Made by a program: the position numbers and the translations under genes
Shown: piece by piece, positions 1,746 to 63,598 of the stretch
Layout of the letters: every line of letters begins with the position of its first letter
Numbering within the stretch: position 1 is the first letter of the stretch
Notes under the pieces: model-generated
What the model was told of the DNA's origin: nothing
Databases searched by the model: none
The model's input: only the letters and a program-made list of their open reading frames with translations
From: Escherichia phage vB_EcoM_011D4
DNA: 64,000 nucleotides
Strand: one strand, 5' to 3'
Sequence record: MT478991.1

Positions 1746-2154
1746 TATTAATGATTTCTTCTACACATTCCCACTCAAGGCCACCGATACCGCAACCGAT
1801 TTTAGGAATATAGAAAGGCTGTATAGCACCCTCAAAAACATCATTAAGAGACTCAAATCCTTTCAGGATAGCACCATATTCAGCATTTGGACCCGGTCGG
1901 AATTGGGTATAGAGATTCACCCCGCACCAGTTATAACCATTAACTTGATGCGTCCAGATACTAAACCCACCCAGCTTTTCTACCTTACCGCGAGAAGTTT
2001 GCTTGTCAATCTCTAACGCTTGCGGGAACTCTTTTGCGATATCCGCAGCAATACCAGCGCCCATAGTATGAAAACAATTACAACCATGAATTAAATGACC
2101 GTTTCCTTGTTTAAACAGGGCGATGAGATCGCCCTTTACAGTATCAATAATCAT
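1699..2154 (-). CDS. macrodomain protein, TARG1/OARD1-like (putative ADP-ribose hydrolase)
   Basis: 151 aa; motifs VKGDL ... HGCNCFHTMGAGIA ... F and PKIGCGIGGLEWE resemble the TARG1/C6orf130 macrodomain signature as recalled from memory. Confidence 0.6.
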   Translation of the reverse strand: MIIDTVKGDLIALFKQGNGHLIHGCNCFHTMGAGIAADIAKEFPQALEIDKQTSRGKVEKLGGFSIWTHQVNGYNWCGVNLYTQFRPGPNAEYGAILKGFESLNDVFEGAIQPFYIPKIGCGIGGLEWECVEEIINIATPDINIVVVEYDK

Positions 2155-2169
2155 AATATAAACCTCTCA

Positions 2170-2529
2170 TTAGTCACGGGAAGACAACCCAGCCATAAAA
2201 CGGCTTAACAGTGTGTCGCGATAAGCAAAGCATAATTGCTTATCAGGGGCAGTATCACACAGGTTGCGTTTTGTTTTAGCAAAGCTGGCAATACTCAGAT
2301 CCCATGCTCGATTTTTTCGTTTTTCGTCTCGACCTTGTTTGTATGCTTCATCAAGTTCGAGCGCGATAAAATCACTACACATGTTATCATCATCACAGAA
2401 AGTTTTAATGATCTTTTTGTTGATCTCAAATCCTTTGTATTCAAACTTTGGATAAGGGCGCTCATTACTAGCAAGCGCACCAGCCGAGAACATCATAGCA
2501 ATCATAGCAATTATTGTCAACTTTTTCAT
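2170..2529 (-). CDS. hypothetical secreted protein
   Basis: 119 aa; signal peptide MKKLTIIAMIAMMFSAGALA; several Cys residues. Confidence 0.45.
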   Translation of the reverse strand: MKKLTIIAMIAMMFSAGALASNERPYPKFEYKGFEINKKIIKTFCDDDNMCSDFIALELDEAYKQGRDEKRKNRAWDLSIASFAKTKRNLCDTAPDKQLCFAYRDTLLSRFMAGLSSRD

Positions 2530-2536
2530 ATATTCC

Positions 2537-3127
2537 TCAATAGCGTTTAGTCTTAAGAATGCCTTTACTCTTTAGATGGTTAGCCTTTTTTAGTACGTCA
2601 TCAGCATAACCTAATCCGGCTTTATAGTTCCATCCAGCATTGTAAGAAGCTAGCGCGAGTCGGATATTACCGTTTCGAACATCCAGCCAGTATGCTAACT
2701 CATCCATCGCGTAGAATGCAGAAACCTCGCGATTCATGATAAAGTTGATAGTCTGGCGATCACTCATTTTAACACCGCGCTTTGCATTTTTCGCTTTCAC
2801 CGTTTTAAGGTAATTTTGAAATAATCCATAAGCATGATGATTTTTCTTTGGTGCTAAGTTTGCACCCGCGCTTGATTCTTGCCATGCGATACCCGCCAGG
2901 ATGTGGCCTAAACCCTTTCCGTTATAGCGAATATTCGGATGGTACTTTTTCAACTTACCGCTTTTCTCAAATTGCTCGCCGTATTGATAGGCGAAATGTA
3001 AATTATCTAGTTGGTGTGCTGTAAAGTTGTCTATCGGCGCTTTTTTGATCGGTGCGCTAGTCGATGCGTGTGTAGCACCAACGGCTAGTGACAGACTCAA
3101 TACTATCGCTTTTAGAACTTTTAACAT
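2537..3127 (-). CDS. secreted lytic transglycosylase (SLT domain)
   Basis: 196 aa; signal peptide; SLT-type motifs AWQESS ... YGLFQ ... YNAG. Confidence 0.65.
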   Translation of the reverse strand: MLKVLKAIVLSLSLAVGATHASTSAPIKKAPIDNFTAHQLDNLHFAYQYGEQFEKSGKLKKYHPNIRYNGKGLGHILAGIAWQESSAGANLAPKKNHHAYGLFQNYLKTVKAKNAKRGVKMSDRQTINFIMNREVSAFYAMDELAYWLDVRNGNIRLALASYNAGWNYKAGLGYADDVLKKANHLKSKGILKTKRY

Positions 3128-3212
3128 TAATTTCTCCTGTTTGGCTTAACTTTCTGATTCCATAATATAGCCCTATCACCAGAAAGTCAAGCATTATTTT
3201 AACCAATTTCCA

Positions 3213-3635
3213 TTATTGGTCTACTTTCAAAACAACCGCCGACATTTTACCCGCCAGTCGTTTTGGATTCTCTATAATCATTCGGCAGCATAGACCGTGA
3301 TACGGCTTACCCTCTTCGATTAGATCTACTGTCATCCCGATCCACATGTTACCGTCAGTAATTTCTAATCGATTAGGTCTGTCTTCCATTTTCAGGAAGT
3401 CGAAGATCTCCGGCAAACGAGTTTCTATCTTATTGAATAGTTCCATTGTCTTATGTTCATCGATATGACGATCGGTTAGACGGTCGATCATATGCGGACT
3501 AAAGCGAATGAAAATATACTCACCATAACCATCATTCAAGCACTTTTCTTTGATCTGTGCATTGGTTTTGCGCATTTCGGTTTCGAAGAATCTACGCAGC
3601 TTACTACGGCGAACATGTACGTTAATTGTTTCCAT
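3213..3635 (-). CDS. hypothetical early protein (regB position by synteny; assignment tentative)
   Basis: ORF track gives 3213..3677; an internal Met (METINVHVRRSKLRR) preceded by AAGGA is the likelier start; size and position relative to tk resemble T4 regB but the sequence could not be verified. Confidence 0.4.
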   Translation of the reverse strand: METINVHVRRSKLRRFFETEMRKTNAQIKEKCLNDGYGEYIFIRFSPHMIDRLTDRHIDEHKTMELFNKIETRLPEIFDFLKMEDRPNRLEITDGNMWIGMTVDLIEEGKPYHGLCCRMIIENPKRLAGKMSAVVLKVDQ

Positions 3636-10884: not shown

Positions 10885-10912
10885 CAATAAAAAAGCCACT
10901 CCGAAGAGTGGC
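10885..10912 (-). terminator. rho-independent terminator (UUCG-type loop)
   Basis: minus strand AAGCCACTCTTCGGAGTGGCTT followed by a U-run. Confidence 0.55.
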
Positions 10913-14917: not shown

Positions 14918-15003
14918 TACTGATTCCTCAAATGAAAATATTTATTAACAATTGTCGCTTTGCGACGTGCCGGAGGCACTGACTATTTTTTAACCGAAAC
15001 AAA

Positions 15004-15050
15004 TTTTCTATATTCTAAAGATCTTTCTTCGTTTTGGTTATATTTTAACC
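15004..15050. repeat. 45-nt conserved intergenic repeat, copy A
   Basis: ttctaaagatctttcttcgttttggt core identical to copy B near 49.8 kb; contains a 10-nt palindrome aaagatcttt. Confidence 0.6.
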
Positions 15051-15106
15051 AATAACTATATTTTTATACAGTAATAAATAAAACGGGTACTATACGAGGA
15101 CTTCTT

Positions 15107-15361
15107 ATGACAGAAGACATTTTGTTAAAACTCTATGATCGTTTGGACAACGAATTGGCAACATTGCGGGGTGAAGTTCTCTATTTGTCTAAATGCAATA
15201 CAGATCTGCTTAAGCAGATTGCAGAAAGGGATGACCAAATAAAATCCCTTTCAGGTGCATTACGTGATCGCGACAAGGCATTAGAGATTTTACAGCGTGT
15301 AACCAATAAAGAAGAATTAAAAGACTTCTTACATGGTTATGCTCATGCCATCGATCTATAA
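15107..15361 (+). CDS. hypothetical coiled-coil protein
   Basis: 84 aa; GAGGA upstream; only plus-strand ORF between minus-strand genes 3 and 2. Confidence 0.4.
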   Translation: MTEDILLKLYDRLDNELATLRGEVLYLSKCNTDLLKQIAERDDQIKSLSGALRDRDKALEILQRVTNKEELKDFLHGYAHAIDL

Positions 15362-15363
15362 TA

Positions 15364-15390
15364 AAAAAGCCCGTCATTGACGGGCTTAAT
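15364..15390. terminator. hairpin terminator between convergent genes
   Basis: aagcccgtcattgacgggctt hairpin, A-run on one side; lies between the stops of 15107..15361 (+) and gene 2 (-). Confidence 0.5.
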
Positions 15391-15391
15391 G

Positions 15392-16213
15392 TTATGCATC
15401 CTTCCAAACTTTCCTTGCGTCGTATTTCTTGCCTTTTGACATAAACTGATATGTCGGCATATAGATAATATTGCTCCAGTCTTTCGGGCTAATTTCAACA
15501 AGTTTTGTTTTAATGTGTCCCGGTAGATATGCTTTGATCATGTGATCACTTCCACGCATACCTTTTACATCGCTCCATTTGATTTTTAAGCGTGTTTTAT
15601 TACTCAAGGTAGGAGTAGATGCATATTGCTTTAAAAGTGCCTCTAAAAACTGCTGACGGGCTTTAGGCGTTACATAGTGTAAGTTAAGACCCAGCATTAC
15701 AGTATTACCCGCCTTTGTCTTAGAATCACCCAGACAAATGATCAGCGGGAAAACATCCCAATATGGCAAAGTGTCTTTATACTTCGCATCATACATAAAG
15801 GTATAGATTCGCCCTACTTGCGGTTTTACAATCTGGTGTCCCTTTATTCCCGCTTTTATTGTTTTAGTAAACCACTCCTGTGATTTTTCTTTAGGACGAC
15901 TCTTTGATACAGCACGCATAGACGCACGAAAATCATTAATCATCATCATTGCGCGTTGCTGCTTATTGAGACCCTTTGCGCCTTTCCCTTTTAGTTTTTC
16001 AACTTCTATTGCTGTTTTAATTTCGCTGGCATAACGAGACATACTTTTAGTGAAAGTCGCATAGGCTATTCCCTTAGAATCTGCAAATGCTTTAGCTGTC
16101 ATGCCTTTGGCTTTTGCTTTCGCAAATTCTACACCCAATTCGACCCACTGTTTAGACTTTCGTTTTTGGGGAGACGGCTTTTCGTCTTCTGTGATTATTT
16201 CAAATACGCTCAT
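15392..16213 (-). CDS. 2: DNA end protector protein (gp2-like)
   Basis: 273 aa, Lys-rich; size and position match T4 gp2. Confidence 0.6.
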   Translation of the reverse strand: MSVFEIITEDEKPSPQKRKSKQWVELGVEFAKAKAKGMTAKAFADSKGIAYATFTKSMSRYASEIKTAIEVEKLKGKGAKGLNKQQRAMMMINDFRASMRAVSKSRPKEKSQEWFTKTIKAGIKGHQIVKPQVGRIYTFMYDAKYKDTLPYWDVFPLIICLGDSKTKAGNTVMLGLNLHYVTPKARQQFLEALLKQYASTPTLSNKTRLKIKWSDVKGMRGSDHMIKAYLPGHIKTKLVEISPKDWSNIIYMPTYQFMSKGKKYDARKVWKDA

Positions 16214-36671: not shown

Positions 36672-38992
<2,321 letters not shown>

Positions 38993-49512: not shown

Positions 49513-49648
49513 AATATTTCCTCCATAGAAAGCAATATCATACTACAAGTTAATAACAAATACAAGTATCCGCGTAGCGGAAGCGAGCACAGCGAGCAAT
49601 AAAAACACTTCCAGTAATTGATTAATAAATGTTCGAAACAAATTTTTA

Positions 49649-49690
49649 TTATTCTATAAGATAAGTCTTCGTTTTGATCATAATTTAATC
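49649..49690. repeat. conserved intergenic repeat, copy C (degenerate)
   Basis: ttctataagataagtcttcgttttgatcataatttaatc aligns to copies A and B. Confidence 0.5.
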
Positions 49691-49792
49691 ATACATGTAA
49701 AAACTACACAAAAGGATATCGCTTCGCGAACTCCTACGGAGTATAACATTTGTGTTACAATATGTAGTGATTAATAATTAACCAAAGATACA

Positions 49793-49839
49793 TTTTCTAT
49801 GTTCTAAAGATCTTTCTTCGTTTTGGTCATAATTTAATC
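49793..49839. repeat. conserved intergenic repeat, copy B
   Basis: ttttctatgttctaaagatctttcttcgttttggtcataatttaatc; about 41 of 45 positions identical to copy A. Confidence 0.6.
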
Positions 49840-49890
49840 AAACAGTATTAATATTGTGCACATGTAAACTAAAATTATGTTAATAACAGA

Positions 49891-49920
49891 TACAAAAAAG
49901 CCGCCCAGAAGGACGGCTAA
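49891..49920 (-). terminator. rho-independent terminator
   Basis: hairpin agccg-cccagaagga-cggct with a minus-strand U-run. Confidence 0.5.
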
Positions 49921-49926
49921 TGTTAA

Positions 49927-50364
49927 TTATTTGTTGATAACGATCTGATTTCGGCGAATGGTAACATTACTCTTAGAGATGATCAGATCATCCGGCACTA
50001 CGTTAGTTTTGTATGGCTGGAAGCGAACAAGCATCTGATTGCGTTTAGACCCTTCCTTAATCTTGATTTCCATCTGGATATTGTTGCCTACGTGAGCAAC
50101 CGCAATTTCACCTTTATTCTCATAGACCCACTTGCTGGTAACGTCTCCAGCAAAAGCCTTAATAACTTGCAATGCTTCGTCATATGCGGTAGAGCTGTGA
50201 ACTTTCAGAAGACCAGCCGTAGCAAGACGGGAGCAGGTGATCGCCGGAGATTGCCAAACATCAACATTAATTTGCTCAATCAGAGTAACACCGCCCTGAT
50301 CAACTGCTTTGAATGCTTCGAACATTGCCTTTTTCATTGCTACGTGGTTTTTACGGAATTTCAT
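49927..50364 (-). CDS. hypothetical protein
   Basis: 145 aa ORF, no recognisable motif. Confidence 0.45.
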   Translation of the reverse strand: MKFRKNHVAMKKAMFEAFKAVDQGGVTLIEQINVDVWQSPAITCSRLATAGLLKVHSSTAYDEALQVIKAFAGDVTSKWVYENKGEIAVAHVGNNIQMEIKIKEGSKRNQMLVRFQPYKTNVVPDDLIISKSNVTIRRNQIVINK

Positions 50365-63057: not shown

Positions 63058-63084
63058 AAAGGCGGGGATAATCCCCGCCTTTTT
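63058..63084. terminator. bidirectional rho-independent terminator
   Basis: hairpin ggcgggg-ataa-tccccgcc with T-run on plus; lies between convergent gene 54 (+) and lipoprotein gene (-). Confidence 0.6.
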
Positions 63085-63598
63085 ATTTGATTAAATCATC
63101 ACATTGTTTGCGTAGTTTATAGCGATACTGTTTTGATTGTAGCAATTGAAGTTTTTCATAATCCCCTTCCTCATATGCAGCCGAAAGATCATCTTGATAT
63201 GCTGCTTCCGTCCCGATTACACATACTCCAAATTTTCTACGACGGTCGGCATCTTCCATTGCTTTGCGATTCATTTCTTCAATTGAATTTTCATGACCAT
63301 AATAATATTCGTAAATGCGTTTCTTCTCTGCTTCTTTATCTGCCTTAATCTTTGCGATCTGTTCTGCTGATTCCGGTTGACGACCTAAACGCTGTAATGA
63401 GGCGTCTTTCTTTTCAAGGTAGTCAATAACGCAATCTTCAACGCTATTAAATGGAAAACGTGACTCTTTCTGCCATCGTTCACATGACCGTACAAACTCG
63501 TGTGTATTCTTAGATGCAAGTGCCAGATCATGCACAGCGCACCCATTAAGCATAGCCACTAAAGCCGCAGCAAGACCAATCAGTTTAATCATTTTCAT
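63083..63598 (-). CDS. putative lipoprotein
   Basis: 171 aa; signal peptide with lipobox-like LNGC; Lys/Glu-rich helical body; start ATG overlaps the stop of the upstream ART gene. Confidence 0.5.
   Translation of the reverse strand: MKMIKLIGLAAALVAMLNGCAVHDLALASKNTHEFVRSCERWQKESRFPFNSVEDCVIDYLEKKDASLQRLGRQPESAEQIAKIKADKEAEKKRIYEYYYGHENSIEEMNRKAMEDADRRRKFGVCVIGTEAAYQDDLSAAYEEGDYEKLQLLQSKQYRYKLRKQCDDLIK

Follow-up and report, generated by a model that had tools for sequence, protein, structure and literature searches.

An AT-rich intergenic cassette repeated in Krischvirus genomes and shared with an Escherichia coli prophage: a putative regulatory module

Described cassettes, promoters and repeats

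Promoter-early stem-loops (PeSLs) have been described in phages RB49 and phi1 (Arbiol et al. 2010, PMC2839356; Comeau et al. 2014, PMC4122927), and one PeSL subclass, reported for this genus, has its stem-loop upstream of the -35 element (PMC2839356; PMC4122927). The repeat analysed here belongs to the same genus and resembles PeSLs in being a short repeated intergenic cassette that combines a GC-rich stem-loop, an AT-rich tract and a rightward promoter-like box. As in PeSLs, a stable stem-loop stands beside the AT-rich cassette, one of the four copies (A to D, see below) precedes a gene of unassigned function inside a virion module, copies recombine with one another, and similar cassettes occur in other phages. 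It differs from PeSLs in that their defining sigma70 consensus, TTGACA-17-TATAAT, is absent from the cassette, in that its four copies, the full complement, lie in late-gene regions and not in hyperplastic regions, and in that the cassette is itself a 73-bp dyad. Nor does an ORF(an) with Shine-Dalgarno sequence and start codon regularly occupy the 3' end: copies B, C and D have no ORF.

Phage T4 offers two further comparisons. The T4 MotA box, (a/t)(a/t)(a/t)TGCTT(t/c)A, is centred at -30 and lies 11-13 bp from the -10 element, while T4-type late promoters carry TATAAATA (in RB49, WATAAATA) at -13 to -6. Like the MotA/AsiA-dependent middle promoters, the cassette has a -10 of the TAnnnT form, a conserved block near -30 and no -35 hexamer, and a class of this kind would fill a gap, RB49 having been reported without a middle class. 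However, positions -35 to -26 read TAAAGAT(C/A)(T/C)T in all copies, which is not a MotA box, and for RB49 there is no motA orthologue and no middle consensus, with AsiA orthologues listed for other phages only (Nolan et al. 2006). Moreover, the cassette, supposing that it works, would have to do so in a temperate phage that has no T4-type factors. The T4 origins oriF and oriG provide the second comparison. Both consist of a promoter without -35 element followed by AT-rich DNA, and both the origins and the cassette are present in few copies in late regions at roughly comparable map positions. The two are nevertheless dissimilar in sequence, and copy D is followed by a GC-rich hairpin with hardly any AT-rich DNA in between; the likeness is one of sequence layout and map only.

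Small bacterial palindromic repeats such as Correia and ERIC can carry outward promoters and RNA-processed hairpins. With these and with MITE-like repeats the cassette shares the size class (70-130 bp), imperfect terminal inverted repeats, discrete boundaries and an intergenic location beside terminators. It differs from them in having neither target-site duplication nor presence/absence polymorphism, in its very low copy number, in being phage-borne, and in that we know of no transposase partner. It is best filed as a variant of the 'mobile regulatory cassette', with neither the consensus promoter of a PeSL nor the target duplications and empty sites of a MITE.

Extent, copies and surroundings of the cassette

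The 64,000-nt stretch of DNA analysed (the window) derives, to judge by its sequence, from a Krischvirus, an RB49-like T4-type coliphage. Around the repeat it is 97.5-98.6% identical to RB49, phi1, JSE, ECD7 and 50-odd other members of the genus; in RB49 coordinates it begins near 47.8 kb. A first-pass annotation of the window had reported a near-identical 45-nt repeat at 15004-15050 and 49793-49839, with a degenerate third copy at 49649-49690. The two 47-nt stretches indeed agree at 43 of 47 positions. The window contains exactly two occurrences of their 26-nt core, TTCTAAAGATCTTTCTTCGTTTTGGT, one at 15013 and the other at 49802, each on the plus strand; 100 dinucleotide-preserving shuffles yielded no match (chance expectation none). 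The third copy was likewise upheld (nhmmer, E = 3.6e-17), and an HMM built from copies A, B and C recovers all three with E values of 1e-17 to 1e-20. The length required correction: full homology between copies covers 72-73 nt, ending in TGAyTA...TAAyCA, and this cassette has a GC content of 19-23% vs 40.7% for the window.

Copy A occupies positions 14980-15051 on the plus strand (TGACTA...TAACCA). It comprises a left arm (14980-15000), a conserved core (approximately 15010-15038) and a right arm (15031-15051), inside which lies a TAnnnT hexamer, TATATT (15039-15044). Copy C (49619-49691, plus strand; TGATTAATAAATG...TTTAATCA) has a degenerate core and the best arm pairing among all copies, and copy B (49768-49840, plus strand; TGATTAATAATTAACC...TTTAATCA) contains the hexamer CATAAT at 49828-49833. 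A genome-wide search for further copies, which the annotation had recommended, was productive. The HMM of the three window copies located a fourth, D, outside the window, at RB49 150000-150075 on the minus strand; D is inverted relative to A, B and C, and the gap that it occupies, 203 nt long, separates the tail-fibre genes 35 and 36. A weak fifth nhmmer match falls inside the RB49p194 coding sequence and was judged to be due to chance.

Four intergenic places are occupied in each of the 58 Krischvirus records (blastn, word 11, 85-nt region), and the other 50,639 of 50,697 phage records, T4 included, contain no credible match in blastn at word 11. In pattern scans of IMG/VR, JGI metagenomes and GTDB genomes, only two cassette families were found, that of Krischvirus and one in an E. 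coli prophage (see below). These searches establish the cassette together with its boundaries, copy number and distribution. No ORF of at least 30 aa is present on either strand within the cassette, and the proposal of a conserved non-coding element stands: the copies are neither coding nor confined to a single genome. The literature searched contained neither a Krischvirus transcriptome nor the core sequence itself. In genome engineering, four dispersed repeats, one of them inverted, are potential recombination points.

Copy A lies in a gap of 189 nt bounded on one side by gene 3, which starts at 14918 on the minus strand, and on the other by a plus-strand ORF of 84 aa, beyond which comes gene 2 (minus strand); this ORF is, as had been noted, the sole opposite-strand ORF between genes 3 and 2. 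The small ORF (RB49p130, phrog_17832; 15107-15361) has no assigned function, has no homologues outside Krischvirus and is the sole cargo found after any copy. It starts 55 nt after copy A, with a late-type box, AATAAATA, in between (15073-15080, plus strand), just outside the cassette and 27 nt upstream of the ORF. The small ORF does not, therefore, need the cassette as its promoter. The same box is found on the minus strand at 14939-14946, where it precedes the start codon of gene 3 by 21-28 nt, and diverges from copy A. A hairpin terminator at 15367-15387 serves gene 2 and also closes the small ORF. Copies C and B share a 414-nt ORF-free gap (49513-49926) downstream of gene 24, between the DprA-like ORF164 and ORF165, both on the minus strand. 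About 55 nt downstream of B lies the terminator (49899-49918, minus strand) of a 145-aa ORF (49927-50364, minus strand), which is homologous to the terminator beside D. At all four Krischvirus copies, the sense strand of the flanking genes is the reverse strand of the cassette.

Every copy is preceded, at a distance of 0-45 nt, by one or two GC-rich stems of 4-6 bp with three-base loops. Directly upstream of A are two such mini-hairpins, gtcgcTTTgcgac and gtgccGGAggcac (14954-14979, plus strand), which are shared with D, the loop bases alone differing. Copy C has the triloop hairpin tccgcGTAgcgga upstream (49569-49581), and two more, tcgcTTCgcga and actccTACggagt (49719-49742, plus strand), separate C from B. 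The hairpin sequences differ between contexts and the hairpins themselves are always present, as would fit a generic insulator of the kind seen in one PeSL subclass.

Some features of the C/B gap and of the block around D deserve mention in their own right. The gap accommodates two cassettes and three triloop hairpins, is ORF-free in an otherwise compact genome and is nearly invariant in five strains. A candidate sigma70 promoter for ORF164, TTGTAT-17-TATGAT, lies on the minus strand at about 49533-49561. The stretches between the cassettes in 49513-49926 might encode small RNAs, although their fold z-scores are only -1.3 to -1.4. The terminator, copy D and its two hairpins are together flanked by a direct repeat, TTAACATT (RB49 149965-150115), and the terminator of this block is nearly identical to one in an early cassette at RB49 159.77 kb.

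When 27 distinct copies are aligned, they define an invariant block consisting of ATTCTAAAGAT, three variable bases and TCTTCGTTTTG, followed by a variable hexamer and then TTTAAyCAA. The hexamer exists in eight forms (TATATT, TATGTT, TACATT, TACGTT, TATAAT, CATAAT, GATGAT and GATGGT), in which only A at position 2 and T at position 6 are invariant, position 1 being T, C or G; copies B and C both have CATAAT. The 10-nt palindrome AAAGATCTTT, to which attention had been drawn, is present in A, B and D and missing from C and from the prophage homologue; it is therefore not a defining feature. Copies A, B and D have one and the same 26-nt core, which hardly varies from strain to strain. Since intergenic and coding DNA are equally similar within the genus, within-genus variation adds little. 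What changes there are in A and D (4-7 strains) are nearly confined to five places, made up of the loops of the hairpins, the third position of TAnTTT in the left arm, the TTTTCTAT run and, in the right arm, hexamer positions 3-5. The B/C gap is nearly invariant. The rare hexamer TACGTT is common to copies A and D of one genome and absent from other genomes, suggesting gene conversion between copies.

None of the 58 records lacks a copy or carries extra cargo at B, C or D, and the B/C and D regions align in a single piece in essentially every Krischvirus record. The only indel near A is a homing-endonuclease gene beside gene 2. An association with ORF presence or absence across relatives, envisaged at the outset, was not borne out: no such polymorphism is tied to the cassette at any of the four sites. 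Each Krischvirus locus shows the arm-flanked segment in one orientation in all genomes examined, unlike an inverton, an invertible promoter switch of which both orientations occur at a single locus. A side observation concerns the endonuclease gene: about 1 kb long and annotated as such in ECD7, FL37, FL38 and G2248, it lies between the small-ORF terminator and gene 2 (window 15388-15395 region; 1894-2928 of the ECD7 extract) and is absent from the window and from RB49.

This arrangement raises the question of whether the cassette is a selfish or neutral palindromic repeat of the MITE type, or a recombination scar, spread and homogenised by recombination among phages of the same host and devoid of function, with B, C and D being cassettes minus cargo. 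Its sharp boundaries coincide with the inverted-repeat ends in four unrelated flanks, it is found in terminator-promoter gaps only, and the gene conversion suggested by TACGTT is as expected from such homogenisation. The terminators after A (past the ORF), B and D are related, and AATGTTA comes directly after each of them. Both A and D are followed by an A-rich late-like box, and gene 36 has TATAAATA between D and its start codon; since it has the same two hairpins, the late-like box (in D a remnant) and a terminator homologous to that of A, D resembles an A cassette minus its ORF. Yet no target-site duplication is seen beside A, B, C or D or beside the prophage copy, the direct TTAACATT repeat bracketing a larger block around D only. 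There is also no empty site and no difference in copy number among the 58 Krischvirus genomes, and we know of no transposase for the cassette. The identity of the core in A, B and D and its near-invariance across strains likewise speak against a lack of function, as does the cost of dispersed repeats in a hyper-recombinogenic T4-type genome, which argues for selection. All considered, a functionless repeat seems unlikely.

Promoter tests and dyad symmetry

The best sigma70 PWM score at the cassette loci, on either strand, is at most 8.6. This is background level (best scores per 180 nt have a median of 6.9, and a score of 8.5 is attained in 23% of windows), and seven real RB49 early promoters score 12-16.5. 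The cassette contains no -35 hexamer, and none of its loci is matched by an HMM built from 32 early promoters of RB49 (nhmmer, E > 100 throughout). None of the 51 early promoters predicted for RB49 (Nolan et al. 2006) is located at A, B/C or D. The RB49 late box, WATAAATA, is absent from the inside of every cassette, the boxes near A lying outside it. The cassette is therefore neither a canonical early, nor a late, nor a MotA-type promoter, in keeping with the initial claim that it matches neither the early nor the late pattern of the window.

Several other promoter assignments were considered and discarded. A canonical sigma70 promoter, TTGGTT-17-TATATT, fits copy A only; in the prophage its spacer varies between 15 and 17 nt and position 6 of the -10 is not T. 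The pairing TTGATG-N-TATGAA is excluded because its spacer would vary between 15 and 17 nt across 29 prophage variants. A PeSL-like promoter in the left arm, TTGCGA-18-TATTTT, whose spacer would contain a hairpin, scores weakly with the PWM and is not supported by the HMM, and a reverse-strand promoter gives PWM scores at background. To our knowledge, and by eye, there is no convincing match to the sites of sigma28, 32, 54, E or S, or of FNR, CRP, LexA, Fur/Zur, PhoP, ArcA, IHF, RcsAB or BaeR. Separately, the reverse complement of the core, ATAACCAAAACGAAGAAAGA (window 15023-15050, reverse strand), resembles the 5' leaders of RB49 early mRNAs, ATACCGAAACGAAAGGAGA. The cassette might have descended from a decayed early promoter-leader, although the early-promoter HMM gives this no support.

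Taken on its sequence features, the repeat is a copy of a hairpin-shaped, AT-rich non-coding cassette, which would most likely be an unusual promoter or regulatory module exchanged by these phages. The particular form that we tentatively prefer is a PeSL-like regulatory cassette of stem-loop plus promoter, acting at the DNA level through a non-canonical promoter without -35 hexamer. Host RNA polymerase would use the TAnnnT hexamer of the right arm (TATATT at 15039-15044 in A, CATAAT in B and C). In place of a -35 hexamer, recognition would come from the invariant upstream core (ATTCTAAAGAT..TCTTCGTTTTG, at about -14 to -38), from the UP-like AAACAAATTTT tract or from a putative bound factor. 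Transcripts would begin rightward at about 15051 (A) or 49840 (B), and the GC-rich mini-hairpins would insulate the cassette from incoming transcription. We take the cassette to have multiplied within the genome and to have been traded, through recombination, with a temperate phage of E. coli, its copies being homogenised by gene conversion. We infer the promoter identity of the cassette, its direction and any factor dependence from the following features. In four context types, homology stops a few bases past the hexamer and indels occur immediately downstream, as expected at a transcription start. The sigma70 signature consists of -11A and -7T, read as flipped-out bases, and a hexamer invariant only at A2 and T6 matches it.

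A number of points count against the promoter reading. Besides the missing -35 hexamer, the background PWM scores, the negative early-promoter HMM and the absence from the 51 predicted promoters, the one ORF that follows a copy is preceded by a late-type box of its own, and B, C and D lead into terminator or antisense sequence only. A TAnnnT hexamer arises easily in DNA of 80% A+T, and its invariant A also pairs in the dyad described below. Dyad symmetry with covarying pairs is not explained by a promoter alone.

Krischviruses are thought to have two promoter classes only, early (sigma70) and late (gp55), and no MotA. A bolder extension of the preferred reading would make the cassette a third, -35-independent class: a four-member regulon whose core is read by a host or phage factor and which drives short non-coding or antisense transcripts in late regions, possibly R-loop primers like those of oriF/oriG, in a form portable to the control of a temperate phage. 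We regard this extension as improbable. Were the cassette an active promoter or a protein site, it would add a regulatory class to a genus of therapy-cocktail phages believed to run a simple two-stage programme, and would mark three unexplained transcription or replication landmarks in late regions.

The symmetry of the cassette is that of a long imperfect dyad, in which alignment columns 6-12 pair with 72-78 and 17-26 with 58-67, with an additional inner helix of 4 bp. Across the 27 distinct copies, the 21 proposed pairs are formed in 85% of cells, vs 35-57% when the partner is slid by 1-3 columns; pairing amounts to 78% for columns 6-12/72-78 and 84% for 17-26/58-67. This comparison establishes the dyad. 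Some pairs vary in a coordinated manner: pair 18-66 is C-G in 12 copies, A-U in nine and G-C in two (three Watson-Crick types), and a competing local pair, 64-76, is A-U in 14, G-C in nine and G-U in four, never A-C. The minimum-energy fold predicted for A, B, C, D and the prophage copy has one and the same long-hairpin topology on both strands.

It is conceivable on these grounds, if doubtful, that the cassette is a structural hairpin element, largely independent of orientation, serving either, within read-through transcripts, as a site of RNA processing or stability (an RNase III-type target, for example) or as a cruciform or single-strand DNA hairpin. RNase III-type hairpins have a near-continuous duplex of about 20 bp or more in a transcribed intercistronic region; the fold of the cassette has 17-21 AU-rich pairs broken by loops. 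The shared topology, the excess of formed pairs over the slid controls and the covariation all speak for such an element, as does the constant relation of the cassette's reverse strand to the sense strand of the flanking genes. The late-type boxes of genes 3 and 36, however, lie downstream of the cassette, so that late mRNAs would exclude it. The predicted fold is, in addition, of marginal stability (-9 to -15 kcal/mol, z-scores of -0.9 to -2.0). The core, which is the most conserved part, sits in an unpaired asymmetric loop. Many copies have mismatches at pairs 19-65, 20-64 and 26-58; mismatches are of both the G-T and the A-C type, so that neither strand is favoured, and the covariation stems from few independent events. 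Rfam returned no family, either at the gathering threshold for the whole window or in E-value mode for both loci and the prophage region, and a tRNA scan found no tRNA.

The homologue in an E. coli prophage

Apart from Krischvirus contigs, the metagenome and IMG/VR pattern scan identified about 40 contigs with a diverged copy of the cassette, scoring 39-43 bits against the Krischvirus model. This copy is carried by an uncharacterised prophage, about 37 kb long, that occupies the ycdX gene of E. coli and has a large serine recombinase, a gpA-type terminase and a lambda-type portal; an example is found in strain PSJ-22 at 1177.6-1215.3 kb of the chromosome. The nearest relative of its terminase is 43% identical, and megablast revealed no similar phage or plasmid. 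The prophage cassette, which is single-copy, was found in 53 of 5,426 complete E. coli genomes; its site is a control region of 1.4 kb that contains no ORF, and it is directed at an ORF150-ORF110-Rha-terminase-portal operon. About 480 nt from the cassette, the same region contains nine TTTTGCCCCTGAAA iterons; it also has two perfect leftward sigma70 promoters, and motifs resembling the core (TTCTAGAAAGAT) recur in it. Its identity is 95% or more in 52 of these 53 genomes and 90-95% in the remaining one, and identity in the surrounding 1 kb drops to 60-90% in 23 of 58, which points to a stronger constraint on the cassette than on its flanks. Such conservation speaks against a functionless repeat. 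Together with the four copies in all 58 Krischvirus records, the lack of a match in the other phage records searched and a prophage homologue directed at an operon, it was counted in favour of the stem-loop-plus-promoter model.

Homology between the prophage and Krischvirus cassettes begins and ends exactly at the arm ends. The two phages have further DNA in common: a uvsW-type helicase gene, 79.6% identical over 1,375 nt (about 79% at both the amino acid and nucleotide levels) with patches near 100%; a gp37-type tail fibre gene, 73% identical over 2.7 kb of nucleotide sequence; and an ORF of phrog_6147. This sharing points to genes having passed between a temperate phage and a virulent one of the T4 type. 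A 24-nt terminator hairpin, gccactcttcggagtggctttttt, is identical in the window (10889-10912) and the prophage (36720-36743 of the PSJ-22 extract), and in Krischvirus it belongs to a typical terminator-plus-early-promoter cassette. Together with the other shared DNA, the identical terminator demonstrates directly that small regulatory modules are exchanged between the two phages. Whatever its function, the cassette is a clear case of a non-coding module of less than 100 bp traded between a virulent T4-type phage and a temperate phage of one host, along with uvsW, a tail-fibre gene and a terminator, and it carries the idea of a 'mobile regulatory cassette' beyond T4-like phages. Its occurrence in two otherwise unrelated phages that share these sequences would also be accounted for by the spread of a MITE-like repeat. 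The first-pass annotation had offered a protein-binding site, a recombination or mobility sequence, or a distinct regulatory class. The recombination and mobility part of this proposal is supported, the cassette being present in an unrelated prophage that shares other DNA and copies A and D sharing variants within a genome; the choice among the three is beyond what sequence alone can decide.

Divergent relatives of the prophage are informative as to which parts of the cassette are kept. In the STEC1575 relative (270-350 of the extract) the arms are retained and the core is replaced by unrelated sequence. In the FDAARGOS_1267 relative (235-330 of the extract) the core is inverted, as a fixed strain difference (nhmmer match on the opposite strand, E = 3e-5). 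Both relatives retain a rightward GTTTTG followed by TACTTT or TATAAT, at an unchanged distance from a conserved downstream leader, ATGAAGGAGG-hairpin-GACTGAAT. This retention of GTTTTG plus TAnnnT was counted for a rightward promoter. Across 29 prophage variants, indels start immediately past TTAATCAAA, the point at which a transcript would be expected to begin. Inversion or replacement of a core between arms resembles the hairpin-loop inversions known from other genomes. The inverted core has the typical footprint of template switching at a hairpin or inverted repeat and favours the structural hairpin to that extent; core replacement and inversion would also suit a MITE-like repeat. That one relative tolerates an inverted core suggests that the orientation of the cassette may not matter, which tells against a promoter. 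A further argument against the promoter model is that no factor common to the two phages was found: neither tblastn of all prophage ORFs against the Krischvirus genome nor Pfam and PHROGs searches with 20 prophage proteins, the small ORF and RB49p194 revealed a shared DNA-binding factor.

The control region also bears on a last explanation, namely that the arms and core are a binding site for a host or phage protein, or that the cassette is an origin in which a -35-less promoter and an AT-rich unwinding element provide an R-loop primer, as in T4 oriF/oriG. The iterons close to the prophage cassette, the recurrence of core-like motifs in the control region and the similarity of the UvsW-type helicases would all be in line with such a function. 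So would the very AT-rich sequence downstream of A and B and the position of the Krischvirus loci (genes 3/2, 24/hoc and 35/36), which we take to lie within 2-5 kb of the positions of T4 oriE, oriF and oriG. The positional argument is weak, however, as late regions have few intergenic gaps, and a GC-rich terminator hairpin follows only about 15 nt past D. With no credible cassette match outside Krischvirus among the phage records, and hence none in T4, and with neither an initiator nor a shared DNA-binding protein found in the searches above, an origin or protein site appears very unlikely, and the stem-loop-plus-promoter cassette remains our preferred reading.

Two minor observations may be added. 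A 15-nt string, gatgatttaatcaaa, at window 63081-63095 (minus strand) is identical to the right arm of the prophage cassette; it lies at the 3' end of a coding ORF (63083-63598), and the match is probably due to chance. The prophage control region (2036-3412 of a separate extract) also contains repeated AACTrGTTACTA...TGATTCTAGA units and two copies of an AGGAGG-triloop hairpin-CGACTG element, in which the stem of the hairpin persists although its sequence differs from variant to variant.
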